Of a DNA stretch of 34,184 nucleotides, positions 7,753-30,981 are shown piece by piece. Source of the stretch: a virus (Duplodnaviria; Caudoviricetes); the IMG/VR virus record IMGVR_UViG_3300031861_000009, positions 1 through 34,184 of that record; one strand, given 5' to 3'. The first letter of the stretch is position 1. Every line of letters starts with the position of its first letter. The position numbers and the translations under genes are program-made. The notes beneath the pieces were generated by a model. That model was given only the letters and a program-made list of their open reading frames with translations. It searched no databases and was not told the origin of the DNA.

Positions 7753-8625
7753 ATGGCTGATATCATTTACGTTACAGTTTCGCCAACGGTGACCATTTCA
7801 ATTCGTGAAATGTCTGGACGTAGCGGCATGGACTCCGCTGACAACAATACGGCAATGCGTAGGTGGTTGGTGCGTGGTAGTTCAGATCCAATCGTTTGCC
7901 GTGCAGCGTTTGTTGGTGTTGCTGCAACGATAGGTTTGTATTCCTACGACAGTCTCGGTCTAAAGAATATGGATTGGGCGTTGTATGCCGAAGGTGGTCC
8001 TGATGCGTGGGAGTTCACCGCGAACTATGATTACACGCCAGAAGTTGGCGGTTGCACAATTTCAATTGACACAACAGGCGGAACAGTTAACACGCAGGCC
8101 GCATATTCACAAACAGATTACAATGCACCCGGTGAAGTTGCACCAGATTTTGGGACGTCAATCAATGTTGATGCAGACGGAAACCCAATGGGCGTTTCTA
8201 AGATAATCCCGTCAATGAAAATCTCGGTGAAAGCAAAGATTGCGGCAGCGTATGTGACAACTCCATGTGACTACGCACAAATTTTGTATGAATGCACCGG
8301 CAAGGTTAATGATGCTACGTTTTTGTGTTTTGATGCGGGAGAGGTTTTGTTCTTGGGTGCGACTGGTGATCTGGTTTCCGAGGATCCGGTTTTGAATTTC
8401 TCGTTTGAAATCAGTCCGAATGTAACTGCCTATAGCATCGGCGGTATCGGTGGGATTACCAAAGATGGTCACGATTATATTTGGTTCAGTTTCAAGCAAT
8501 CGCAGGACGCTGCTACGAATCTGAAAGTATCAACACCGCGTGCTGCATATGTTGCGAAAGTTTATGAGGAAGCGGATTTTGATAGTATGAAAATCTGTGA
8601 AGCACCACCAGCACCACCACCATAA
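7753..8625 (+). CDS. Distal tail / tail-tip protein
   Basis: Immediately after the TMP; AGGA RBS; GKVN..FLCFDAGEVLFLGA and ITKDGHDYIW. Confidence 0.6.
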   Translation: MADIIYVTVSPTVTISIREMSGRSGMDSADNNTAMRRWLVRGSSDPIVCRAAFVGVAATIGLYSYDSLGLKNMDWALYAEGGPDAWEFTANYDYTPEVGGCTISIDTTGGTVNTQAAYSQTDYNAPGEVAPDFGTSINVDADGNPMGVSKIIPSMKISVKAKIAAAYVTTPCDYAQILYECTGKVNDATFLCFDAGEVLFLGATGDLVSEDPVLNFSFEISPNVTAYSIGGIGGITKDGHDYIWFSFKQSQDAATNLKVSTPRAAYVAKVYEEADFDSMKICEAPPAPPP

Positions 8626-11438: not shown

Positions 11439-11719
11439 AGTCGTATTCTGACCTTCTCGCTGACCTATCTTTCAGCCAACCCCCCTGTGGCTTTTGTATG
11501 GAAACAGGCTTGAAGTCTAGATTCTGAAAAGATTCTCTAAAAAAACTTTCCTCAGATAGCTTGCTCTGGATGGGTGTCCATTCAGGTCAATAAGCAGACC
11601 CCTAGAAATCTTTTACTAGGGGGCAGATTGGGATGGAACTAGACCCCTCTTTACTGTCTACTGGTTTAGGTGAAGGTTAGCTACCTTCACTAACTGATCT
11701 TTCTCAATCTATCTAACGC

Positions 11720-12223
11720 ACCCGGCAGTGATCTGAGCCGTCCGGGGATCGACCAACTCGCGGGGGAAGTAACCCCCTGAACTACGAGAGCGAGCTACTT
11801 CGAAACGCATAGCCTTTCAGAAGTATCTCAATCAGAGTCAGGGGATGAAAAGTCCACGAGCCAAAACCAAAACTTCATCTAGTTCCTTCTGGTGCGGGGA
11901 TGTTTGTTGCGGACAGTCGATCATAAACATTAACGTGTTGCGGGTAAGTCTTACGAGCCCCGACCGACCGCCGGATAAACATTTGCAATCGCAAGTGAGG
12001 CGGGTAGCCAAGGAACGTTCCTCGATTTGAGTTCCTCTGAACTACGAACAACAAACACAAGCCGCGAAGCCGCTTACTGTTTGAAGAACGAGTCAGAGAT
12101 TCAAATGATTCAGTCGAAGGTTAACGAAGGCTATGCTCAGTTCGAGCCAAACCAAACGCAACACCCTGACCTAGTCAGTAACTTTCGAGAGACAAGTCCT
12201 CTCGCGAGCGAACGCGGTCGGTC
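11720..12223 (+). ncRNA. Large (~500 nt) highly structured ncRNA candidate, class unknown
   Basis: No credible ORF; long-range complements 11747-54/12216-23, 11757-62/12203-08, 11807-16/12127-36 and 11901-09/12049-57; pseudoknot 11837-43/12164-70; many local hairpins; ends at a hammerhead cut site. The 5' boundary is uncertain. Confidence 0.65.
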
Positions 12224-12268
12224 GCATGGCACTGGTAGCCATGCCTGATGAGATACCTCGAAACCGAT
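12217..12268 (+). ncRNA. Hammerhead ribozyme, type III (HH1); predicted cut after C12223
   Basis: Stem III UCGGU/ACCGA, GUC site, stem I GCAUGGC/GCCAUGC, core CUGAUGA 12245-51, 2-bp stem II, GAAA 12260-63; loop I GGUA is complementary to loop II UACC. Confidence 0.85.
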
Positions 12269-12281
12269 AACAGGAAACACA

Positions 12282-12632
12282 ATGACGAATTCAAAAGTCA
12301 AACGACAAATCGAAAAAGCAACCGGCACCACAATCAAGCTGAGTTCATGGAAGTGCGACTCACACTACGAAGGACATGCAGAAGCATACGCAAATTGTGA
12401 GAAGGTTCGCTATCACACTGGCTACACGAAGTGGACAGGCGACATAGTTATGAAAGGAGAACAGTGGGAAGCCAAGACGAAGGAAGCAAGCAACAGGGGT
12501 AGCCTACTTGCTCTCGCAATCAACTTCGAACTGCACGACATCGCAGACGAGATCATCGCGACTATCGAAACGATACGCAATGTAGAACTCGCAGCATACT
12601 GCGGCGTCACTGACCTCAACCACCTCAACTAA
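12282..12632 (+). CDS. Hypothetical early protein
   Basis: 116 aa; CAGGA RBS right after HH1. Confidence 0.75.
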   Translation: MTNSKVKRQIEKATGTTIKLSSWKCDSHYEGHAEAYANCEKVRYHTGYTKWTGDIVMKGEQWEAKTKEASNRGSLLALAINFELHDIADEIIATIETIRNVELAAYCGVTDLNHLN

Positions 12633-12674
12633 CACAATCACTTTTAACAACACCAACACCAACCCCGGAGAACA

Positions 12675-12875
12675 ATGATGAAAGATACTACACGTTCAAG
12701 AATAAACGGCCAATGCAGTTGTGGCCGAAAGTTTGAAAAAGTAACGGTAGACAGAGTCGCAACTACCGTTTGCAAAAGGACATGCCGCAAGTGTGGAAGT
12801 AAATGGCAATTGATTTTCAAGCCAATGACGTTCAACGGCTTGACGACACAGTTGATGAGTGGAACTAAGGTATAA
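12675..12875 (+). CDS. Small Zn-finger-like protein
   Basis: CSCG...CRKCG; CCGGAG RBS. Confidence 0.7.
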   Translation: MMKDTTRSRINGQCSCGRKFEKVTVDRVATTVCKRTCRKCGSKWQLIFKPMTFNGLTTQLMSGTKV

Positions 12876-12922
12876 GAACGAACAACGTAACAACAACAAC
12901 AACAACAACGAGGAATAGAACG

Positions 12923-13141
12923 ATGATGCAAAAGTTAAATAAATGGATCGCTGATACTTTTCCGCACCTTGGAAAGATCGAACTCGTCAAAGGCAATGGC
13001 TACTTTTACTTTTGTGCGGATGACTGGCGGCTGGACATTCAGTCGATTGGCGTTTGTCACTTGAACCACGGAACGATTTACCAGTGGAAAACATGGATGG
13101 CCGACGAGATCAACGATGCAGTCAAAGACGCAAATCTCTAA
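12923..13141 (+). CDS. Hypothetical early protein
   Basis: (CAA)n leader plus GAGGA RBS; LVKGNGYFYF. Confidence 0.75.
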   Translation: MMQKLNKWIADTFPHLGKIELVKGNGYFYFCADDWRLDIQSIGVCHLNHGTIYQWKTWMADEINDAVKDANL

Positions 13142-13173
13142 TCCAACAACAACAACAACACCGGAGAACAAAG

Positions 13174-13713
13174 ATGATGACTTATACATCCAAGGGCGTA
13201 GCAAGAGCAATCGCAGCAGCGATAATCGCAGGAGCGGACACCAAAGCTGAAATGGCTAAAGACATATTGACGATACATGATTTGCTGCTTGAAGGTTCGA
13301 TGTGCATGGGAGAAGAAATCAGCGAGAACGAAATACATCACTGGGGTGATGGCAAGTATCAAGCACAGCAAGAGTTCATCGATGATCTTTCGCTTCACCT
13401 TGAAGCATTCGGTGAGGAACTATCGCGTGAAGAAAGTCAAGACGACAAAGATGAAGAGGTGGTAGAGATTAAGCCTATCAAGGTTGGAGACAAGCTAACT
13501 CTTGAAAGACATCCCGTACTGCATTCCAACTCAGTCGCTGCTTACAAGGTAACGACCAAGACAGTAACAAAGGTTAGTGAATGGTCTAACGGGACACCAG
13601 AGAAGTTCCATGTATCATTCAAAGGAATGAAGGGACGCTTCACGGTCAACACAAAAACGGGTTGGGTACATGGTGAAAAGTCACGCTACTGCATCATGGT
13701 CCCAGTCAAGTAA
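13174..13713 (+). CDS. Hypothetical early protein (acidic N-half, SH3-like C-half)
   Basis: Start reassigned to ATG 13174 behind the (CAA)n-CCGGAGA leader. Confidence 0.7.
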   Translation: MMTYTSKGVARAIAAAIIAGADTKAEMAKDILTIHDLLLEGSMCMGEEISENEIHHWGDGKYQAQQEFIDDLSLHLEAFGEELSREESQDDKDEEVVEIKPIKVGDKLTLERHPVLHSNSVAAYKVTTKTVTKVSEWSNGTPEKFHVSFKGMKGRFTVNTKTGWVHGEKSRYCIMVPVK

Positions 13714-13749
13714 TCACAATTCAATTCACATTCACACCGGAGAACGAAG

Positions 13750-13965
13750 ATGAGATTCTATATCAAATTCACTTTCTGCCCATCGCATACTACAGACCAG
13801 TACTTGAGAGGTGTTAGCAAGCGTCACGGAATACAGTGGACCGAGAACAAGAGTGAGGCAAAGACATGGGCTACCCGCAAGGGAGCAGAGAAGTATCACG
13901 CAAAACTGAGACTTACATTCTCATTCGTGAAAGCCGAATTTGGTAATCCCACCGAGTGCAACTAG
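13750..13965 (+). CDS. Hypothetical early protein
   Basis: CACCGGAGA RBS; 71 aa; AKTWATRKGAEK. Confidence 0.7.
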   Translation: MRFYIKFTFCPSHTTDQYLRGVSKRHGIQWTENKSEAKTWATRKGAEKYHAKLRLTFSFVKAEFGNPTECN

Positions 13966-14007
13966 CCATTACATCCTTTACAACAACAACAACACCGGAG
14001 AACAGTT

Positions 14008-14202
14008 ATGAAGTGTAGAACATGCAAAAGCAAGAAAGTCAACGACAGGAATCAATGCAAAGACTGCGGATTGGAAATCTGCATTCACACGGGCAAGAAC
14101 TTCGGCGGCAAAAGTTGGATGGACGAGGCATCGGTTCACCTGTGCGTGAAGTGCTGCAAGGTACGAGCGAGTAAGTGGTTGGAAGATAAGCGGAGCGTTT
14201 GA
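14008..14202 (+). CDS. Cys-rich Zn-finger-like protein
   Basis: CRTC, CKDC, CVKCC; (CAA)n-CCGGAG leader. Confidence 0.7.
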   Translation: MKCRTCKSKKVNDRNQCKDCGLEICIHTGKNFGGKSWMDEASVHLCVKCCKVRASKWLEDKRSV

Positions 14203-14235
14203 GTAAACAACAACAACAACAACGGAGACAGAATT

Positions 14236-14469
14236 ATGAGTAAGTATTACGTCTTGGTAGTGAAGGAATTTGAAGACGAAGCGTTTGGCATGGAGTTTGG
14301 TTGTTATGACCGAAACAACGTTCGGGACGAATTAGCCGACGTGAAGTACACCAACAAGATGAATGGTCATAAAGCGAAGTACGCGATTCTCACTTGCCAG
14401 AATGCAACGCAAGCCAGTATCGACGCTCGCGTTGCTGACTACAACAAGTGTGAACCGACAACCTTTTGA
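14236..14469 (+). CDS. Hypothetical early protein
   Basis: (CAA)n-CGGAGA leader; 77 aa. Confidence 0.75.
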   Translation: MSKYYVLVVKEFEDEAFGMEFGCYDRNNVRDELADVKYTNKMNGHKAKYAILTCQNATQASIDARVADYNKCEPTTF

Positions 14470-14472
14470 AGT

Positions 14473-14489
14473 GCGGATATTAAAAGCAG
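14473..14489 (+). promoter_or_regulatory. Repeated 17-bp intergenic motif GCGGATATTAAAAGCAG, copy 1
   Basis: Exact copy at 14797-14813; both sit right after a stop codon and before a CAA leader. Confidence 0.45.
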
Positions 14490-14521
14490 ACAGTTACAAC
14501 AACAACACCGGAGACAGAGTT

Positions 14522-14794
14522 ATGAGTAAGAAACAATTACCGAGGTACGGAGTTTTGATCGCTCGCTTCACTGTACGAGAATGGCAGAAGAACGGTTGTG
14601 CTATCACAGTGGAATCAAACTGCGGCGAGAAGTACATCTTGATGGCTGGTGACGCCTCGCGTGGTAATGATTTGAGTGAAGTGAAACGTGGCACGAAGAT
14701 TCACGTCCGAAACAACAGGCATCCTGTTGAGAAAACAACGCCTCGGCAAACCGTAGTCGCGACGAGTTGGTATGTAATCACGATAGACGACTGA
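14522..14794 (+). CDS. Hypothetical early protein
   Basis: Start ATG 14522 after GGAGACAGAGTT. Confidence 0.7.
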   Translation: MSKKQLPRYGVLIARFTVREWQKNGCAITVESNCGEKYILMAGDASRGNDLSEVKRGTKIHVRNNRHPVEKTTPRQTVVATSWYVITIDD

Positions 14795-14796
14795 TA

Positions 14797-14813
14797 GCGG
14801 ATATTAAAAGCAG
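14797..14813 (+). promoter_or_regulatory. Repeated 17-bp intergenic motif, copy 2
   Basis: Identical to 14473-14489. Confidence 0.45.
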
Positions 14814-14851
14814 CAAGTAACAACAACAACAAAACTACAGGAGACAGAGTT

Positions 14852-15088
14852 ATGATCTACGTGGTCAACTATTCCGGCGACTCGCGAGGCGAAACGAAAG
14901 AATACTTTGAGTGGTGTACGATATTCGGCACACGAAAGGAAGCAATCAAGTGTGCTAAAGCATTATGCAATGAACAGAACAAGCGTTTGAAGTATGTTCC
15001 TCTCGATAGCGAAGAACATTACACGGACTACGATGCAACCAACTACATCTGCGTTCAACAAAGTCTTCATTGGTCAAACGGTGCATAG
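14852..15088 (+). CDS. Hypothetical early protein
   Basis: GGAGACAGAGTTATG leader; IFGTRKEAIKCA. Confidence 0.7.
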   Translation: MIYVVNYSGDSRGETKEYFEWCTIFGTRKEAIKCAKALCNEQNKRLKYVPLDSEEHYTDYDATNYICVQQSLHWSNGA

Positions 15089-15098
15089 CACCACGCAA

Positions 15099-15159
15099 GT
15101 CGAAACGCCTTCGGGCGTCAGGGCAGGATGGCTACCTGTCCTCTGATGAGACAAGCCAT
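15099..15159 (+). ncRNA. Hammerhead ribozyme, type II (HH2); predicted cut after C15119
   Basis: GUC-GAAA; stem III ACGCC-UUCG-GGCGU; stem I AGGGCAGG/CCUGUCCU; CUGAUGA-GAC; loop I AUGGCU pairs with 3' AGCCAU (pseudoknot). Confidence 0.93.
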
Positions 15160-15181
15160 TTACTTTTACCGGAGAGATGAA

Positions 15182-15874
15182 ATGAAGATTGTTACAAACG
15201 TGAAGCGTATCGCTAGAAACATCCGATTCATTCTGACTGCTGATCTTGCTGATGAGTCAAAGGGTCAAACAAAACTTTGGAAGAAACATCAGATCCTTGA
15301 ACACAGCATCGAGAAATGTGAAAAGGTGGTTGAGGAATACGACATCAACATTGAAGAGGCTGTCAGTGTTCAGATGGACAATGTGGAATTCGAACACCAC
15401 ATTGAAGAGGCTCTTGACCGCATTGATTGGGACGAACAGTGTCAGGAGGCAATGAACAACTATGACAGTACAGAAGATATAAGGATTGCAATTCAAGATT
15501 ATGACATTGAATCCGATATTGAAGAACGAATCAGCGACACTGATTGGTCCACGCATATCGGAGATTTTCTGTCAAGCAAAGTGTTCAAGGATCTGTTGAT
15601 TGATTCAAGTGAGGATCCAATTGATGAAGCAATCCAAAAATGTGTTGACGCCTTCGACTTCTCAGACCTATCCGAAAGCATGAACGAGTCTGCAAGAGAA
15701 TGCATATCAGATATGTTGAACAAGAAACTATCGAAATGCCTCAAGGTACTTGCTGCCACTTTGGAGGTTGAAGATTTTGAAGATGAAGATGATGACGTCA
15801 AGTTAGCGTTGGACGCTCAGGACAAGAAAGCAGAGATTGATCTTGCAAGCGACCCGCTACTTACCATTCTGTAA
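15182..15874 (+). CDS. Highly acidic protein with ~13-aa helical repeats
   Basis: Start ATG 15182 after CCGGAGA; very D/E-rich. Confidence 0.75.
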   Translation: MKIVTNVKRIARNIRFILTADLADESKGQTKLWKKHQILEHSIEKCEKVVEEYDINIEEAVSVQMDNVEFEHHIEEALDRIDWDEQCQEAMNNYDSTEDIRIAIQDYDIESDIEERISDTDWSTHIGDFLSSKVFKDLLIDSSEDPIDEAIQKCVDAFDFSDLSESMNESARECISDMLNKKLSKCLKVLAATLEVEDFEDEDDDVKLALDAQDKKAEIDLASDPLLTIL

Positions 15875-15905
15875 TATCTAACACCACCAACACCGGAGAA
15901 CAAAG

Positions 15906-16184
15906 ATGACTACAGCAAAAGTTGAATATCTTTCAAAGCCAATTCTTGATACAAGGATTTCACGTCCACCAAATCCAAGGGCAGGAATGACCCAGTACGG
16001 TTATACGTCCGTCAAAGGATCAGCAACGCATTGGATGATCGTGGTTGATGGTCGTAAAACATGGCGTCGAGTTTGGGTTTTATGCTTCTCAAATTCTGCA
16101 TCACACTTCATTAACATTAACGGTGACCGATTCTACTTGAAGGAAAGTCAGATGGAACAAATTATCACAGGAGTTACAGAATGA
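15906..16184 (+). CDS. Conserved phage hypothetical protein
   Basis: CCGGAGA RBS; GRKTWRRVWVLCFSNSASHFI resembles a motif common in small phage early proteins. Confidence 0.75.
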   Translation: MTTAKVEYLSKPILDTRISRPPNPRAGMTQYGYTSVKGSATHWMIVVDGRKTWRRVWVLCFSNSASHFININGDRFYLKESQMEQIITGVTE

Positions 16185-16381
16185 GCATTCTATTCCCAGA
16201 AATCAAAGTCCAGTTAACTGGCACTGACGGAAACGCGTTTGCAATCATCGGAAAAGTAATGAAGGCACTCAAGCGTGCTAACGTTTCTAAAGATGATCGC
16301 GACAAATTCATGTCAGAAGTAATGAGCGGCGATTACGACCACGTTTTACAAACGTGTATGAATACCGTAACAGTCACATAG
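16181..16381 (+). CDS. Conserved phage hypothetical protein
   Basis: VQLTGTDGNAFAIIG...SGDYDHVL, a widespread small phage protein motif; AGGAG RBS. Confidence 0.8.
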   Translation: MSILFPEIKVQLTGTDGNAFAIIGKVMKALKRANVSKDDRDKFMSEVMSGDYDHVLQTCMNTVTVT

Positions 16382-16447
16382 TCGAAACGCTGGTCGCAAG
16401 ATCAGCGTCCACAAGATCACGCCCAACTTGTGCTGATGAGACAGGGC
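16381..16447 (+). ncRNA. Hammerhead ribozyme, type II (HH3); predicted cut after C16409
   Basis: GUC-GAAA; stem III CGCUGGUC-GCAA-GAUCAGCG; stem I CACAAG/CUUGUG; CUGAUGA-GAC; loop GCCC pairs with 3' GGGC. Confidence 0.93.
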
Positions 16448-16472
16448 AACACCTTTACACGGAGACAGAGTT

Positions 16473-17411
16473 ATGACTACGAAAACCATGAGTGACGTTC
16501 AGCTTGCTGTTAGAGCAACTATTGACGAGACATTCACGAGGGAAGTTATCAAAGTGCCGTTGGCAGGACCGGACAACATGCCTAGTCCGCACTATGGATT
16601 ATGTTTCGATGATGCTGAGGGTCGTGATGATTGGATGTCACCCACAGTCAAGAAGGGATACATACCACATACCAAAGAGGATGTATCAATGTTGGCTGAG
16701 ACAGTCGCGGCTGGACTTGACTTGGGGCTTGAGGATGTCCAGATCAGTTGTTTCTTCAAACCTCACAGGGGTCATAGAGTAGCTGTTCAGCCTACAAAGT
16801 CGTATCGAAAAGCATTGTGTTCAAATGAACTTGATACCATGTGGCCCAAGTTCATTATCAATGCTAACTACGGTGGTTCATTCACGGCTCAGTGTGGTAT
16901 GTATCGCGATGCTTGTTCAAACATGCAGATGATGAGAAGGGTTGAACATACGACTGTCCATCTCAGGCACGTTGGTAACTTCCGAGAAAACTTCGACGAT
17001 ACCGTACAGCAATGGCGGTCACTCGCAACGCGGTTTGATTCGATTATGGAAGTGGCTAACAACCTCAAAGAGACGAAGGTACGTGCTGCTGATTTCTACT
17101 CGGCTTTGTACCCCGCTCCGTCTGAGGCAGATACAGTAGCCAAGCACAATCGACACAAGACCAAACTTGAGTCGATGATGGCAAGGTTGTTGAAGGAACG
17201 GGATCAACTATTGGAACCATCGAATGATGTTGTTCGCTGCAATCTGTGGGAACTGGTGAATAGTGTCACTGGATGGGTGCAGCATGACAAACGTAAGACG
17301 AAAGATGGTAACAAATTGTCAGAGGTTGAAAAATCATTCCTCGGTGTTGCTGATCGTGAGTCAGACAAGGCATGGGACTACGCTTTCGACAACTCAATGT
17401 TGAGTGTGTAG
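16473..17411 (+). CDS. DUF932/DUF945-like protein
   Basis: 312 aa; NANYGGS..YRDACSN...HLRHVG and NLWELVNSVTGWVQH match the family's conserved pattern. Confidence 0.7.
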   Translation: MTTKTMSDVQLAVRATIDETFTREVIKVPLAGPDNMPSPHYGLCFDDAEGRDDWMSPTVKKGYIPHTKEDVSMLAETVAAGLDLGLEDVQISCFFKPHRGHRVAVQPTKSYRKALCSNELDTMWPKFIINANYGGSFTAQCGMYRDACSNMQMMRRVEHTTVHLRHVGNFRENFDDTVQQWRSLATRFDSIMEVANNLKETKVRAADFYSALYPAPSEADTVAKHNRHKTKLESMMARLLKERDQLLEPSNDVVRCNLWELVNSVTGWVQHDKRKTKDGNKLSEVEKSFLGVADRESDKAWDYAFDNSMLSV

Positions 17412-17421
17412 TGGACTGAAA

Positions 17422-17501
17422 CCTATGTGAAGCGAAACAGCACGTTCAAGCGTGCTGTCTGCGTAGCTGGTGCTGCGTATTGATGAGACAACCTACATAG
17501 G
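17422..17501 (+). ncRNA. Hammerhead ribozyme, type II, variant core UUGAUGA (HH4); predicted cut after C17459
   Basis: C-GAAA; stem III CAGCACG/CGUGCUG; GUC site; stem I UGCGUAGC/GCUGCGUA; core UUGAUGA (C3U); outer stem CCUAUGUG/UACAUAGG. Confidence 0.7.
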
Positions 17502-19762: not shown

Positions 19763-19803
19763 AGCACCCCTTGAGAGTAAATGCTCAGGGGGTGCTTTTC
19801 TTT
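19763..19803 (+). terminator. Intrinsic terminator after recT
   Basis: 13-bp stem AGCACCCCTTGAG/CTCAGGGGGTGCT followed by a T-rich tail. Confidence 0.8.
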
Positions 19804-19982: not shown

Positions 19983-20323
19983 GCAAAGGGTTGGGGGGTG
20001 TTTACACAAAGCGTATCTGTAATATCTTTTGAGAACCAAGATTCAAATTCGTCCCCTGTAGTCACCGGCTGATAACCGGAGGGGTCGAATTTGAGTTTTG
20101 TTTGTCTCGCTGCCGACATAAATAGCAGCATCCGCGGGCGTCTGACTGCCGCCCGGCCGCAAGGGGCATCCCCCTTCCGTATCTTCTCGCCAAAGAATAG
20201 CAGCACCAATCTCAAACTGTTTGAGTGGGAGTGGACTTTCGAGTGTGACCCGCTTTGTTCTTCAAAGCAAGCTGGACCGTAGGGAATTTCTACACACTGT
20301 GATCTGTTCTTAACAAAACTAAC

Positions 20324-21667: not shown

Positions 21668-22031
21668 GCTGAAAAACTACAACGCTGGTCAGCAAAGAGC
21701 GTGGCAGGTTGCTGCCTCTGAACGCAAGCGTATTGAAAAGTGTTTAAGGCAGCATGGATACGAACGAAAACCATTCCAACGTCCTGTGTCTGTTGAAATC
21801 ATACGCAACCTCGGTCCGAGACAAAGATTTTGGGATTGCGATTCAATTCTCCGAGGATCAGCAAAGCAATTGATTGATTCCCTAGTTGAATGTGGGTGGT
21901 TCAAGGATGATAGCCCTGAGTACATTCAACAATGCGTTGGACGCCAAGCGATAGTGGTTTCCGATGATGGAAAACGAAAATCAGCATCAACAACGATATG
22001 TATTTGGTCGAATCCATCTACTTTCAATTGA
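21633..22031 (+). CDS. RusA-like Holliday junction resolvase
   Basis: WDCDS....AKQLIDSLVECGWFKDDS matches the RusA D-x-D-N...K...D...DD catalytic pattern (N replaced by S). Confidence 0.75.
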   Translation: MTKLYERTIPYKLKNYNAGQQRAWQVAASERKRIEKCLRQHGYERKPFQRPVSVEIIRNLGPRQRFWDCDSILRGSAKQLIDSLVECGWFKDDSPEYIQQCVGRQAIVVSDDGKRKSASTTICIWSNPSTFN

Positions 22032-22066
22032 AACGCCCCGCAGCATTCGTTGCGGGGCGTTTTTTT
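22031..22066 (+). terminator. Intrinsic terminator
   Basis: AAACGCCCCGCAGC-ATTC-GTTGCGGGGCGTTT stem with a T7 run. Confidence 0.9.
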
Positions 22067-22131
22067 CGTATACATAGTTCCGCCCTGCGGTCAATGTTCC
22101 TTGAAACTGAAATGAAAAACAGTCACACTAC

Positions 22132-22212
22132 GTTTGAGGTGGGGCGTAAAAAAACAGGCAGACGGTCGTGCCAACTGTAGCCCCACCCTTGGTGCGACCG
22201 CTCTGCTCAAAC
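22132..22212 (+). promoter_or_regulatory. Structured 5' leader (pseudoknot / alternative folds) of the putative late operon
   Basis: GGTGGGGC 22138-45 pairs with GCCCCACC 22180-87 and crosses helix 22158-73/22190-206; closed by GTTTGA/TCAAAC; just upstream of the GAGG RBS. Confidence 0.5.
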
Positions 22213-22225
22213 AACGAGGGATCGT

Positions 22226-27796: not shown

Positions 27797-28459
27797 ATGA
27801 AAGTTTTAATGATTGGTGTTGACAAGCTCACGTCTCACCCACGAAATTACCGGGAACATCCAACTGACCAATTGGATCACATCAAGCAATCGCTCACTCA
27901 GTTCGGTTTCTATCGAAATGTTGTATCGACGAAAGGCAATGTGATTCTCGCTGGGCATGGAGTAGTCCAAGCAGCGAAGGAACTTGGTATCGAAAAGGTA
28001 CCAGTCATGCAAGTTGACTTGGAGCCAGAGTCGACGGCAGCGTTGAAGATACTTACGGGTGATAACGAAATAGCATCTCTCGGTATCATCGATGATCGCG
28101 AGCTAACCAATATGCTCAAGCAAATCCGTGATGAAGATGAACACGGACTTCTCGGCACGGGTTTCGATGATCAGGTGTTAGCCAATCTTGTAATGGTTAC
28201 ACGAACAGGAACAGAGGTTGAAGATTTCAACGCTGCCGCTGAGTGGGTGGGAATGCCTGAGTACGATAGCGAGGCTGAGGACACTTTTAAGTTGTTAATC
28301 AAGTTTGAGACACTCGATGAGAGAGTTGCATTCTTGAAAGAAAAGTGTGATATCGACAAGGCAACAGAGTTCAAAAATAATACTGCTGCCATCTGGTATC
28401 CTCCAAAGACACCACGAGATACTAAGTCAGTAGCATTCGATGATGCGGACAAGAAGTGA
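27797..28459 (+). CDS. ParB/Srx-like N-domain protein
   Basis: HPRNYREH..Q...IKQSL..FGF...ILAGHG..AAKELG; C-terminal EWVGMPEY...IWYP domain. Confidence 0.85.
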   Translation: MKVLMIGVDKLTSHPRNYREHPTDQLDHIKQSLTQFGFYRNVVSTKGNVILAGHGVVQAAKELGIEKVPVMQVDLEPESTAALKILTGDNEIASLGIIDDRELTNMLKQIRDEDEHGLLGTGFDDQVLANLVMVTRTGTEVEDFNAAAEWVGMPEYDSEAEDTFKLLIKFETLDERVAFLKEKCDIDKATEFKNNTAAIWYPPKTPRDTKSVAFDDADKK

Positions 28460-29364
28460 TAAAGCATCCAAGATACCCGATATACATTCCGAGCAAGGGA
28501 CGTTATGGACGAAGTGAAACTGCTCGCATGTTTGACAAATACGAGACACCCTATCGGGTTGTAGTTGAGCCACAAGAGGTTGACAACTATGCGAAAGCAC
28601 TCGGCAAAGACAAGCTAGTTGTTCTTCCTGAAAATGATCAAGGGTTGGTTTACGCTCGAAACTTCTGCAAGCAGCATTCAATTGATGAAGGGCATGAAAG
28701 ACATTGGCAGTTTGATGATGACATAAGAATGATGGGCCGCATGTATAAGCGTGAGCGAATCCAATGCAATTCATCAATAGCAATAAGTGCCGTAGAAGAT
28801 TTCATAGAGCGTTATGAAAATGTTGGCCTATGTGCATTCAACCATATTGGATTCCTTGGACCGCAACAAGCAGTTCCGCCATTCTATTTGAACACGCGAT
28901 GCTACACATGCTTTTGTATGTGGAACAAACTTCCGAACACATGGCGGTACAGATACAACGAAGATACAGATATGTCCTTGCAGGTTATTGCGGCGGGATA
29001 TTGCACGATCATGTTCAACGCGTTCTTCATGCAAACGTGTGACACGAACTATGGTGGTAAGGAATCAAAGGTTGAAGGTGGTCAACAAGCAGTGTATGCA
29101 GATGACGGACGACTGAAAATGTCGCGTGATCTTGAACGGCAATGGCCGGGTGTAGTAACTACTGAACGAAAGTTTGGTAGACCACAACACAAGATCAAAT
29201 CCAATTGGACCAAGTTTGATACTCAATTGATTCGAAAGAAAACTATTGATTTCGATGCTATGGAGAAGATAGATGAACTTGGAATGAAAATGATGACCGT
29301 TCAAGAAATCAAACACGATGACGTAAAACGAATACTCAAGGAGTATGAACAAGAGCATGGATAA
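28456..29364 (+). CDS. TAGT/GREB1-like GT-A glycosyltransferase (putative DNA-base glycosyltransferase)
   Basis: YPIYIPSKGR, ARN, HWQFDDDI, WRYRYNEDTDMSLQ and GG motifs of the phage TET-associated glycosyltransferase family. Confidence 0.8.
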   Translation: MIKHPRYPIYIPSKGRYGRSETARMFDKYETPYRVVVEPQEVDNYAKALGKDKLVVLPENDQGLVYARNFCKQHSIDEGHERHWQFDDDIRMMGRMYKRERIQCNSSIAISAVEDFIERYENVGLCAFNHIGFLGPQQAVPPFYLNTRCYTCFCMWNKLPNTWRYRYNEDTDMSLQVIAAGYCTIMFNAFFMQTCDTNYGGKESKVEGGQQAVYADDGRLKMSRDLERQWPGVVTTERKFGRPQHKIKSNWTKFDTQLIRKKTIDFDAMEKIDELGMKMMTVQEIKHDDVKRILKEYEQEHG

Positions 29365-30136
29365 CAATGTCAAGATCGTTGTTCCCTACGGCAATCAAAA
29401 ACAAGCGGAGAAGTTTGCTGAAGCATGGGGGGTGACGTGGGGTACTGACTATATGGTGTTCACTTACGATCGGCACAAGCAGGGGTGTGCCATGACAAAG
29501 AACGAAGGAATCAAGACTGCTGTAGCACAGGGTGCTGATACGATTGTTGTTTTGGACGATGATTGTTTTCCTACAAAAGAGCATCCAACCCTTCCTGATC
29601 TTACAGCTTCGCATCTGGAAGCACTTGAACCGCAGCAAGTAAAGATGTTCAAAGAGGTGACGTTTCCATTGTCGAGAGGAACGCCATACTTGAACCAAAA
29701 CAAAAACATGACATTGCCGGTAGCATGTTCGATGGGATTCTGGTCTGAGATAGGCGACTACTGTGCCGCGAGACAGCTTGCATTTGAAGGGCAAGACATG
29801 GAGTTCAAGCATGAGCCGATATTCCAGCAATACTTTCCATTGTGTGGAATGAACATAGCATTCCATCCTGAACAATGGTTGCCTTGGTGTTTGTTTATCG
29901 ACGTGAATCGGTACGATGATATTTGGATGGGTTGGCTATGGCAACGTGAAGCGTATCGAAAGAATCATTGTTTCGCTTTGAACGGACCAACAATACGTCA
30001 CTCAAGACAAAGTGATGTTTGGAAGAACCTGAAAATCGAAGCAGAGTATGCAAAGCAAAACGACACGCTTTGGCGTGAGATCGCTACTGCTGAATATGAA
30101 ACATACGACGATCTGAGGGGACTGCTACCTGTATGA
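29345..30136 (+). CDS. RGP/GT75-like (UDP-arabinopyranose mutase-like) GT-A protein
   Basis: LDDDCFP, SRGTPY, LCGMNIAF and RYDDIWMG parallel the plant RGP motifs DDDC, RGYPF, CGMNLAF and RYDDMWAG. Start 29345 or 29357. Confidence 0.7.
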   Translation: MNKSMDNNVKIVVPYGNQKQAEKFAEAWGVTWGTDYMVFTYDRHKQGCAMTKNEGIKTAVAQGADTIVVLDDDCFPTKEHPTLPDLTASHLEALEPQQVKMFKEVTFPLSRGTPYLNQNKNMTLPVACSMGFWSEIGDYCAARQLAFEGQDMEFKHEPIFQQYFPLCGMNIAFHPEQWLPWCLFIDVNRYDDIWMGWLWQREAYRKNHCFALNGPTIRHSRQSDVWKNLKIEAEYAKQNDTLWREIATAEYETYDDLRGLLPV

Positions 30137-30981
30137 GTAAACAACCGATCATTGATACCGCTGGGCTAGTGGATCAAATGAAACAAACAAATGACAATAG
30201 ACAGCTAACAGCTAGTCGGCAGTTTATGTTTACAAAGGTTGGACGTACCGCATCCGAGTCAATGCACCAAGAACTATTGGGGAACGTCAAAAACTATCTG
30301 AGGCTTGGTCGCGTCAGACAGTTGATTGAGTTTTACAGTACAGACAAGTCAGACAAATCATGGGATAGGGAAACAATAAACCTTTGCCATAATCATATTC
30401 CCATCAGGTCTATGATCGCAGGTGAATTGTTTTCGATGGACTGGTATCATTCGCTTTACAAATGGGGCGGGTGTCGGAATCCTTGGGACAGGCTGGTATC
30501 ATTCTGGCGAATCAAACAGTCAGACCAACGAGGTGCAGGGATAGCCGATAAATGCAACACGTTTGAAGAATTGGTTACAAGACTTGAGAACCATGAAGGA
30601 CGAAACTTCATTCCTGAAAGTAACAAGTACACAATTATGCAACCCATGTGGAGATGGTTGCTACCTGAGTTTGATTACATAACGAGATATGAGTGTTTGA
30701 AAACAGATTGGAAGGTTGTCACAAAGCAGTTGGGCATACCTGAATTGAAGTTGGAAAAACATAATTCATATCACAATCAAACAGATACCAAAAAGCGAAA
30801 GTCATACCTTGATTATTACGACAGTAGATTAGCCAAGAGGGTTGGCATACTATACAAGGATGATTGCAAGATATTCGGGTATGCTGACATTGAAGATCGA
30901 AAGCCATTTGATCAACTCCGAATAAAGAAATATCTCAAAACACATTGGTCAAAACTTGGATACAACGGAGCATCCCAGTAA
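30133..30981 (+). CDS. Sulfotransferase (Sulfotransfer_2-like)
   Basis: 5'-PSB-like KVGRTASES, 3'-PB RNPWDRLVS, DYITRYE.LK.DW, and YLDYYD...YKDD..IFGY. Confidence 0.8.
   Translation: MSKQPIIDTAGLVDQMKQTNDNRQLTASRQFMFTKVGRTASESMHQELLGNVKNYLRLGRVRQLIEFYSTDKSDKSWDRETINLCHNHIPIRSMIAGELFSMDWYHSLYKWGGCRNPWDRLVSFWRIKQSDQRGAGIADKCNTFEELVTRLENHEGRNFIPESNKYTIMQPMWRWLLPEFDYITRYECLKTDWKVVTKQLGIPELKLEKHNSYHNQTDTKKRKSYLDYYDSRLAKRVGILYKDDCKIFGYADIEDRKPFDQLRIKKYLKTHWSKLGYNGASQ

Follow-up and report, generated by a model that had tools for sequence, protein, structure and literature searches.

What does a virus keep in a long gap between its tail genes and its early genes, and what could be the role of an RNA made there? 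The window analysed here is an entire virus record of 34,184 bases, in which the genes recognised by a family scan, among them those for a portal, major head protein, tape measure, terminase large subunit, RecE/RecT and a RusA-like protein, lie on the + strand without exception. An island of ~500 nt lies between the last tail-region gene (end 11438) and the first small early gene (start 12282). Sequencing runs containing the stretch carry the labels marine or seawater metagenome, and a capsid relative of 54% identity, named from Planctellipticum variicoloris, indicates a planctomycete host. The phage is marine, with a host that is likely in the Planctomycetes.

The island was originally predicted to be a large phage RNA with a 3′ end set by a hammerhead ribozyme. 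This core of the prediction is supported by an RNA that is large, conserved, covarying and negative in Rfam, but the specific long helices and the pseudoknot drawn for it are not. A duplicated arm, an upstream hairpin with a host-type boxA and a swap of the RNA tail, all described below, were absent from it. Two related phages, L001 and L002, have capsids 89% identical to that of the window phage and share an island at 11674-12289 that is 68% identical, while the flanking early genes change. Identical bases in the island number 335 of 468 aligned (window, L001, L002), and they are patchily distributed, with 51/64 and 55/64 in the two arms (D1 and D2) and 38/41 at 11935-75 against 44/79 and 29/58 in variable parts, as expected for a structured RNA. 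A fourth variant, X8, is seen only as differences in run X8 (X9 is the same sample) and carries 32 additional bases at 12152, where the RNA is variable; runs X14 and X15 (small share) gave single 151-nt pieces each and were left out as evidence. The block had been called ORF-poor, and it indeed holds no conserved ORF, those of 26 or more codons differing among the three phages.

The five long complementarities of the original prediction are literally in the sequence where it placed them, the outer helix with one G-U pair, but they are eroded in the relatives. With G-U allowed, and in the order window, L001 and L002, the outer helix keeps 8, 6 and 5 of 8 pairs, the CTCGCG helix 6, 3 and 4 of 6 (X8 alters 12203 within it), the GCATAGCCTT helix 10, 5 and 7 of 10, the TGTTTGTTG helix 9, 5 and 5 of 9, and the pseudoknot GTCAGGG/CCCTGAC 7, 4 and 4 of 7. 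The outermost helix was thought to end at the ribozyme cut; instead its 5′ strand, GATCGAC 11747-53, pairs with GTCGATC 11916-22, with 7/7 pairs in the three phages, and because the last bases of the RNA form hammerhead stem III they cannot also close the proposed helix. Among the local hairpins listed at the time, CCGCC/GGCGG and GAGAG/CTCTC are conserved in the alignment but GGGGG/CCCCC and GATGAA/TTCATC are not; likewise the AGUA word at 12177 falls in conserved columns but those at 11768 and 11822 do not. Covariation, which was to be sought in homologs, is present, but in helices other than the long ones and the pseudoknot that lose pairs, and no covarying pseudoknot was found in the RNA. 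Scanning for helices that the window, L001 and L002 can all form gives a model with a 5′ hairpin, two closed domains that would each bear one ~64-nt arm, and a covarying 3′ hairpin:

11721..11746, + strand: P0 hairpin (11721-25/11742-46), 5′ end of the folded RNA; 23/26 identical, 1 compensatory pair.
11747..11922, + strand: domain A, closed by P1 (11747-53/11916-22); 7/7 pairs in three phages.
11935..12164, + strand: domain B, closed by predicted P2 (11935-42/12157-64); 8 invariant Watson-Crick pairs.
12186..12204, + strand: 3′ hairpin (12186-91/12199-204) with an invariant 7-nt loop, ACAAGUC; 4 compensatory pairs in L001/L002.

P0, the first covarying hairpin, fits the 5′ limit of 11720 given originally. 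Four columns of P1 are changed on both sides (window, L001, L002); P2 is invariant, hence without covariation, and an 8-bp match among invariant columns arises in 2.65% of 2000 shuffles. L001 and L002 differ at 18 of 504 bases, 10 of which make up 5 double changes in helices, and the resulting double-change score of 6, in which one pair is a coincidental alternative, compares with a maximum of 5 in 5000 random placements. X8 adds 18 substitutions in 11720-12280: three double changes account for 6, another 9 fall on unpaired bases, a single one preserves its pair and 2 disrupt theirs. Its 3′ hairpin has 2 further compensatory pairs and 1 broken pair.

Folding energy, a further check named at the outset, proved ambiguous. 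The RNA folds better than shuffles (z = -3.05, 0/100 as good), but the minus strand reaches -3.73 and 2 of 9 coding control windows reach z -2.8 and -3.8. Folding energy was dropped as proof of an RNA since coding controls attain similar values. RNAalifold did not discriminate between the + and minus strands; unpaired bases of the + strand model are 48% A (103/214), and the boxA and four hammerheads are all on the + strand. The word AGTC is present in 8 and 10 copies (p 0.01 and 0.004 uncorrected), which is not significant after correction for 256 words.

The arm of each modelled domain is a copy of the same ~64-nt element:

11777..11841, + strand: arm D1; 51/64 identical, mid-stem 11797-801/11820-24 with 4 compensatory pairs.
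12035..12098, + strand: arm D2, the second copy; 55/64 identical.

Both arms have an invariant base (CUGARCUACGA/GAGUCA), an invariant tip (C-GC-NNA-GC-C) and a variable mid-stem. The base consists of CUGA, a bulged purine, CU, a bulged A and C, with GAGUCA on the opposite strand, so that in D1 CUGA-A-CU-A-C faces G-AG-UCA. At three stem pairs D1 and D2 have different bases on both strands, and the arm tips are not palindromic. Across six arm copies 94% of cells pair, a value reached in 0/500 shuffles and compared with 23-30% in slid controls; the score is inflated by related rows and is not a probability. An arm model detects no significant third copy in the window and no match in 17 host rrn loci. 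A likeness to tRNA was considered, as the reverse complement of the arm base resembles the start of the tRNA D-arm and gives many tRNA matches, and was rejected for want of a tRNA fold.

Which strand is transcribed, and from where, is addressed by the elements 5′ of the fold:

11657..11662, + strand: TCTACT, candidate -10-like hexamer; TCTAAT in L001, in L002 and before the leader of a more distant phage, L442.
11669..11691, + strand: 5′ hairpin, probable transcript start; one compensatory pair, invariant loop.
11695..11713, + strand: copy of the host rRNA-leader boxA; 13/19 positions in the window, 18/19 and 17/19 in L001 and L002.

No sigma-70 promoter was found by scan at the 5′ side of the RNA. 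A G-rich ACTAGGGG-like word recurs at 11600-11650 of the window, at 18360-18400 of L001, in L002 and at 7790-7810 of L442; it stands 5′ of the leader once or twice per phage and is a possible operator or promoter element. The hairpin at 11669-91, where the transcript would begin, is directly 5′ of the boxA in all three phages. The boxA was scored with a matrix from Pirellulaceae-related genomes, 37 of 61 with a 16S match and 28 full-length loci, of which 27 were orientable and gave 25 leader sites (one mis-registered site was retained). The consensus of these 25 rrn leader sites is TGATCTTTGACAATTTGGT. The phage sites score 27.7 bits in L001 and 22.3 in L002, in each case the best of the genome (next best 8.9 and 9.9), and 5.4 bits in the window, where the site is the best on the + strand and third overall; the other 24 host sites score 26.3-33.6 bits. 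The match is within the host range in L001, near it in L002 and weak in the window. It points to + as the transcribed strand, shifts the likely start of the transcript to ~11668 and suggests a Pirellulaceae-like host.

According to accounts of bacterial rRNA transcription, boxA loads NusB-S10 and the rrn antitermination complex, and B. subtilis rrn operons are headed by a small 5′ hairpin followed by boxA (PMC13753749). The Nus complex at rRNA is described as mainly aiding folding, with a block to Rho possible in reporters (PMC5725501, PMC8632103). The phage unit shares with the rRNA operon leader of these accounts the order of hairpin, host-family boxA and long non-coding RNA (PMC5725501, PMC13753749, PMC8632103). 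Unlike that leader it has a phage RNA as its cargo, a predicted ribozyme-made 3′ end and, in the window, a decayed boxA. No boxC or leader-trailer helix was identified around the phage RNA.

At the other end, a hammerhead and a segment that competes for one of its strands frame the predicted release of the RNA:

12217..12268, + strand: HH1, type III hammerhead (descriptor search), predicted cut after C12223.
11960..11971, + strand: segment able to pair with the final 10 bases of the RNA once it is released; predicted to capture the tail or to oppose the hammerhead.

The descriptor search thus agrees with the 3′ end first proposed, C12223. The HH1 core is complete (GUC 12221-23, CUGAUGA 12245-51, GAAA 12260-63) and all three phages have its three stems: stem I (12224-30/12238-44), with a compensatory change in L001, L002 and X8, a stem II of 2 bp, and then stem III. 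HH1 has no match to the Rfam hammerhead models; among its sisters, one type II hammerhead in L442 does pass, with 39.9 bits for RF02276. Natural hammerheads with a stem II of 1-2 bp have been described (PMC3088659). The pairing of 11962-71 with 12214-23 has 10, 9 and 9 of 10 pairs in the window, L001 and L002, and the duplex has a computed energy of -21.0, -15.0 and -15.0 kcal/mol versus -7.8 for stem III. Its strands are invariant or nearly so, without covariation, and the CCGCC/GGCGG hairpin is a competitor; chance alone yields one or more 6-bp matches among invariant columns in 70% of shuffles. A swap of the tail from stem III to 11962-71 is predicted by the model, as product release with end capping or as a switch.

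Three further hammerheads follow in the early operon, and the first early gene begins just after HH1:

12282..12632, + strand: first early gene, no family match; other genes in its place in L001 and X8.
15095..15160, + strand: HH2, type II hammerhead, predicted cut after 15119; in both relatives.
16379..16449, + strand: HH3, type II hammerhead, predicted cut after 16409; counterpart in both relatives.
17429..17496, + strand: HH4, type II hammerhead-like, predicted cut after 17459; counterparts in both relatives.

The core of HH4 reads UUGAUGA in the window only (U for C at core position 3) and CUGAUGA in both relatives. Pieces of the early operon between two hammerhead cuts would be expected to have 5′-OH and cyclic-phosphate ends, and their circularisation is possible. 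In L001 and X8 the genes that directly follow HH1 have been exchanged for others. Early genes at 12630-16475 have in front of them a repeated A/C-rich spacer, which ends in a ribosome-binding leader of the CCGGAGA type, and Logan contigs show exchanges between these spacers. Perreault et al. 2011 (PMC3088659) report several hammerheads flanking short gene blocks in prophages and one lying 13 nt 5′ of the first ORF of an early transcript in haloviruses HF1/HF2, and regulated phage hammerheads have been proposed there. As set out there, the HHphage hammerheads of HF1/HF2 share with the present phage their position around short gene blocks of changing identity, one copy just 5′ of the first early-transcript ORF, and a short stem II with loop or pseudoknot contacts (PMC3088659). 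Relative to that description, only the phage studied here has a large folded RNA 5′ of the first hammerhead and a tail-swap partner (PMC3088659).

Could this RNA belong to a class that is already known? Rfam 15 scanned across the whole window has 0 matches at gathering score; with the limit relaxed to E 10, the region and its homolog yield none either, bar one unrelated chance match. The check asked for originally thus turns up nothing that would support a known class. Covariance models of GOLLD, ROOL, OLE and raiA do not match the phage RNA, and membership of GOLLD or ROOL, which often lie beside tRNA genes, is not supported on this ground and for lack of a tRNA island, the whole 34,184-base genome having 0 tRNA and tmRNA genes (ARAGORN). 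GOLLD, ROOL and OLE, as far as they are described in PMC5737381 and 10.1101/2024.12.08.627333, resemble the phage RNA in size class, multi-domain fold and variable stems with invariant loops, and GOLLD and ROOL also in phage location (PMC5737381; 10.1101/2024.12.08.627333). The combination of variable stems and invariant loops is reported as the pattern of intermolecular contacts in OLE and GOLLD (10.1101/2024.12.08.627333). The phage RNA differs from all three in its internal duplication, very narrow known distribution, predicted ribozyme-made end and absence of tRNA neighbours. There is no Rfam or ARAGORN match to a group I or II intron, RNase P or tmRNA. The arm and the RNA do contain short words that we take to resemble group I P/R words and RNase P words; attempts to construct by hand the group I P3/P6/P7 pairings, RNase P P4 or the loop A register of the hairpin ribozyme did not succeed. 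Likenesses to the glycine riboswitch, sarcin-ricin loop and 5S rRNA, and to twister, twister-sister, pistol, hatchet, HDV and hairpin ribozymes, were discarded because the pairing context does not suit them.

The closest functional comparison is with the put RNAs of phage HK022, which are reported to lie downstream of early promoters and to act without a tether to polymerase (PMC9378689). Like putL and putR as presented there, the phage RNA is structured, has bulged stems and is accompanied by no recognised N-type protein (PMC9378689). The phage RNA heads the early gene cluster, although a promoter scan found none before it. Whereas put is given as ~70 nt with two unlike stems (PMC9378689), the phage RNA has ~500 nt, two like arms, a boxA and a hammerhead, and its multi-domain fold is not the two-stem fold of put.

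Sampling of the RNA is narrow. BLAST against 50,697 annotated phage records matched neither the RNA nor the DUF932 protein, and the DUF932 alignment matched 0 of 401 Planctomycetota genomes. Viral pattern scans returned 119, 34, 56 and 5 loci, of which a profile search confirmed the L001 and L002 contigs only; a genome scan had 0 true matches among 91 loci by profile search, and 4 of 44 loci of a metagenome scan were true, each a copy of the three known sequences. With model R1, 79 of 81 capsid-relative loci were blank, though many stop short of the position of the RNA; L442/L443 gave nothing significant, and 0 of 5 planctomycete and 0 of 151 Pirellulaceae genomes, searched without a positive control, had a match. 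Mimicry of host rRNA was likewise not detected, R1 having 0 matches in the 17 rrn loci taken from the 28 full-length ones (16S plus 1.5 kb flank only). Two 26-nt matches in a DNA search of the 401 Planctomycetota genomes were set aside as chance; neither is within a tRNA gene, and the one inspected has no wider likeness to the RNA. The RNA is known from three lineages and one variant only. A literature search of article text, as opposed to supplementary tables (such as those of 224 motifs in PMC5737381 and of clusters in bioRxiv 10.64898/2026.10.21.760802), yielded no published description of it. The hammerhead array and boxA are known parts and the RNA family is not filed in Rfam: this is a large, conserved phage RNA, real and apparently undescribed.

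Other relatives fill the same position differently. Two phages with capsids 76-77% identical (G001 and L004) have no RNA there and an integrase-like gene instead, which we take to be such from its sequence and known motifs; G001 is also without hammerheads and early genes. L442 has early genes in common with the window phage and three type II hammerheads, and at 7841-8190 carries a different folded leader of ~350 nt (z = -4.9) behind a TTGCGT-17-TCTAAT promoter-like site. As this leader, which has no Rfam match, no detectable arm and no strong boxA, occupies the same position, the slot is filled by unlike RNAs.

What, then, would the RNA do? We tentatively prefer, at rather less than even confidence, an rRNA-style unit that yields a hammerhead-released two-armed RNA, likely engaging host transcription factors and sustaining early transcription. 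Transcription would start from ~11668, and the 5′ hairpin and boxA would load NusB-S10 and the Nus/SuhB complex, which, as at rRNA operons, would shield the untranslated leader from Rho and aid its folding. The RNA would then fold into P0, domain A with D1, domain B with D2 and the 3′ hairpin, a step that covariation supports. From hammerhead chemistry, the HH1 cut after C12223 should leave a 2′,3′-cyclic phosphate on the RNA and a 5′-OH mRNA ~58 nt 5′ of the first start codon, with HH2-HH4 cutting the remaining early message. Computed energies predict that the freed tail would move onto 11962-71, making the cut irreversible and capping the 3′ end. Finally, in the most speculative step, the two identical arms might bind a host protein complex at two points, the partner most probably being the elongating RNA polymerase or its Nus/SuhB ring, as for HK022 put.

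The host transcription machinery is favoured as partner because the RNA heads a genome read in one direction, because the protein scan recognised no antiterminator of the N or Q kind, because put of HK022, as described, acts tether-free from such a position (PMC9378689), and because the early/late terminator is conserved with compensatory changes:

19763..19803, + strand: terminator-like hairpin 3′ of recT; hairpin kept, U-tract weaker in the relatives.
22030..22068, + strand: strong intrinsic terminator 5′ of the late genes; compensatory stem changes, U-tract in all three phages.

As put acts untethered, hammerhead release would not abolish a put-like action. The presence of an integrase-like gene in the close relatives that have no RNA (G001, L004) was also counted for the transcription reading. 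Several points pull the other way. The window has an intact RNA although its boxA has decayed to 5.4 bits, so any coupling between them is not tight. The RNA that follows boxA is what it serves in rRNA operons, and a product RNA therefore fits at least as well as antitermination. Two identical arms exceed the need of one polymerase site, and put is only ~70 nt; most early proteins of the phage are without a family, and one of them could be an unrecognised protein antiterminator. The conserved blocks after both terminators could also hold promoters, which would make read-through unnecessary. A variant that we regard as unlikely has an rRNA-style unit produce a two-armed RNA that clamps two sites of a host complex while its tail switches the hammerhead on or off, coupling processing of the early message to binding; if true, it would join a natural allosteric hammerhead to a bivalent RNA, a new class of phage RNA machine.

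A close rival to action on transcription, only a little less probable, is a stable trans-acting product with rRNA-like expression, a two-armed decoy that soaks up a host protein (e.g., a defence nuclease or regulator) or a scaffold that self-assembles like GOLLD and ROOL, for which decoy or scaffold roles are discussed (10.1101/2024.12.08.627333; PMC5737381). The boxA precedes the RNA as it precedes rRNA, the closed domains and capturable tail suggest a stable end, the stems are variable and the loops (D tips, 3′ hairpin loop) invariant as reported for OLE and GOLLD (10.1101/2024.12.08.627333), and the RNA comes first in the early transcript, independent of the swapped first gene. However, the arm tips are non-palindromic, the phage has 0 tRNA genes, R1 detected no host-RNA mimicry in 17 rrn loci and 151 Pirellulaceae genomes, and depth in one metatranscriptome run (contigs only) is 2-3 inside the RNA against 8.9 just downstream. 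This run, chosen for containing the stretch, holds 5 near-identical pieces across 20 kb, with depths of 2 and 3.2 in the RNA, 8.9 and 2.4 just downstream and 4.7 in a tail gene. None of the 5 spans the HH1 cut, and the 8.9-depth piece starts at 12232; such contigs are a weak hint of expression and uninformative for ends or levels.

The competing tail pairing raises the question of a natural allosteric hammerhead, in which D1 and D2 are tandem aptamers whose occupancy would decide if the hammerhead strand is sequestered by 11960-71 and hence if the early mRNA is cut. The pairing excludes stem III and is the stronger (-15 to -21 vs -7.8 kcal/mol), the bulged invariant arm cores resemble binding pockets, and regulated phage hammerheads have been put forward (PMC3088659); yet it is without covariation, 6-bp matches among invariant columns turn up in 70% of shuffles, the downstream gene differs between phages and both arms are far from the switch segment, so that this reading is quite improbable. 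The invariant cores, with the short words resembling those of group I introns and RNase P, would also suit a new catalytic RNA (e.g., self-cleaving) or a degenerate intron or RNase P-like RNA, and twister, pistol and hatchet ribozymes are reported to have emerged from comparable intergenic searches (PMC5737381). The sole Rfam match at E up to 10 is a chance one and the group I, RNase P and hairpin-ribozyme pairings resist construction by hand, leaving a catalytic RNA little probability. Very little indeed is left to a DNA element, such as a single-strand origin, packaging or recombination site with hairpins in ssDNA and an unrelated hammerhead as neighbour. Covariation alone cannot separate RNA from ssDNA, the minus strand folds equally well and the phage encodes RecE/RecT, but an RNA signal (boxA) lies directly upstream and a ribozyme directly downstream, the unpaired + strand bases are A-rich, the RNA tail also serves as hammerhead stem III and, weakly, pieces from an RNA run cover the region.

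Three testable components meet at this locus: a boxA that resembles the host's, an RNA of ~500 nt in which a 64-nt arm is duplicated, and a hammerhead that comes with its own competing pairing. The role of hammerheads in phage genomes is described as still open (PMC6765202). Arms that bound RNA polymerase or Nus factors would make the RNA a second type of RNA antiterminator, far larger than the first; with any other partner it would be a new RNA decoy. The 64-nt arm is small enough to be used as bait, the host group is poorly studied, and the boxA match is a pointer to the host family of an uncultured phage.

Elsewhere in the genome, a second highly conserved non-coding block at 20105-20300, behind the recT hairpin, has long invariant runs in both relatives and no Rfam match, and could be an origin, a promoter region or an RNA. 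Directly behind the strong terminator, 22064-22225 is a conserved late-gene leader of ~160 nt with a GTGGGG/CCCCAC pairing in all three phages. Just 5′ of the terminase gene, at 27797-30981, a ParB-like, two glycosyltransferase-like and one sulfotransferase-like gene form a possible DNA or surface modification module.
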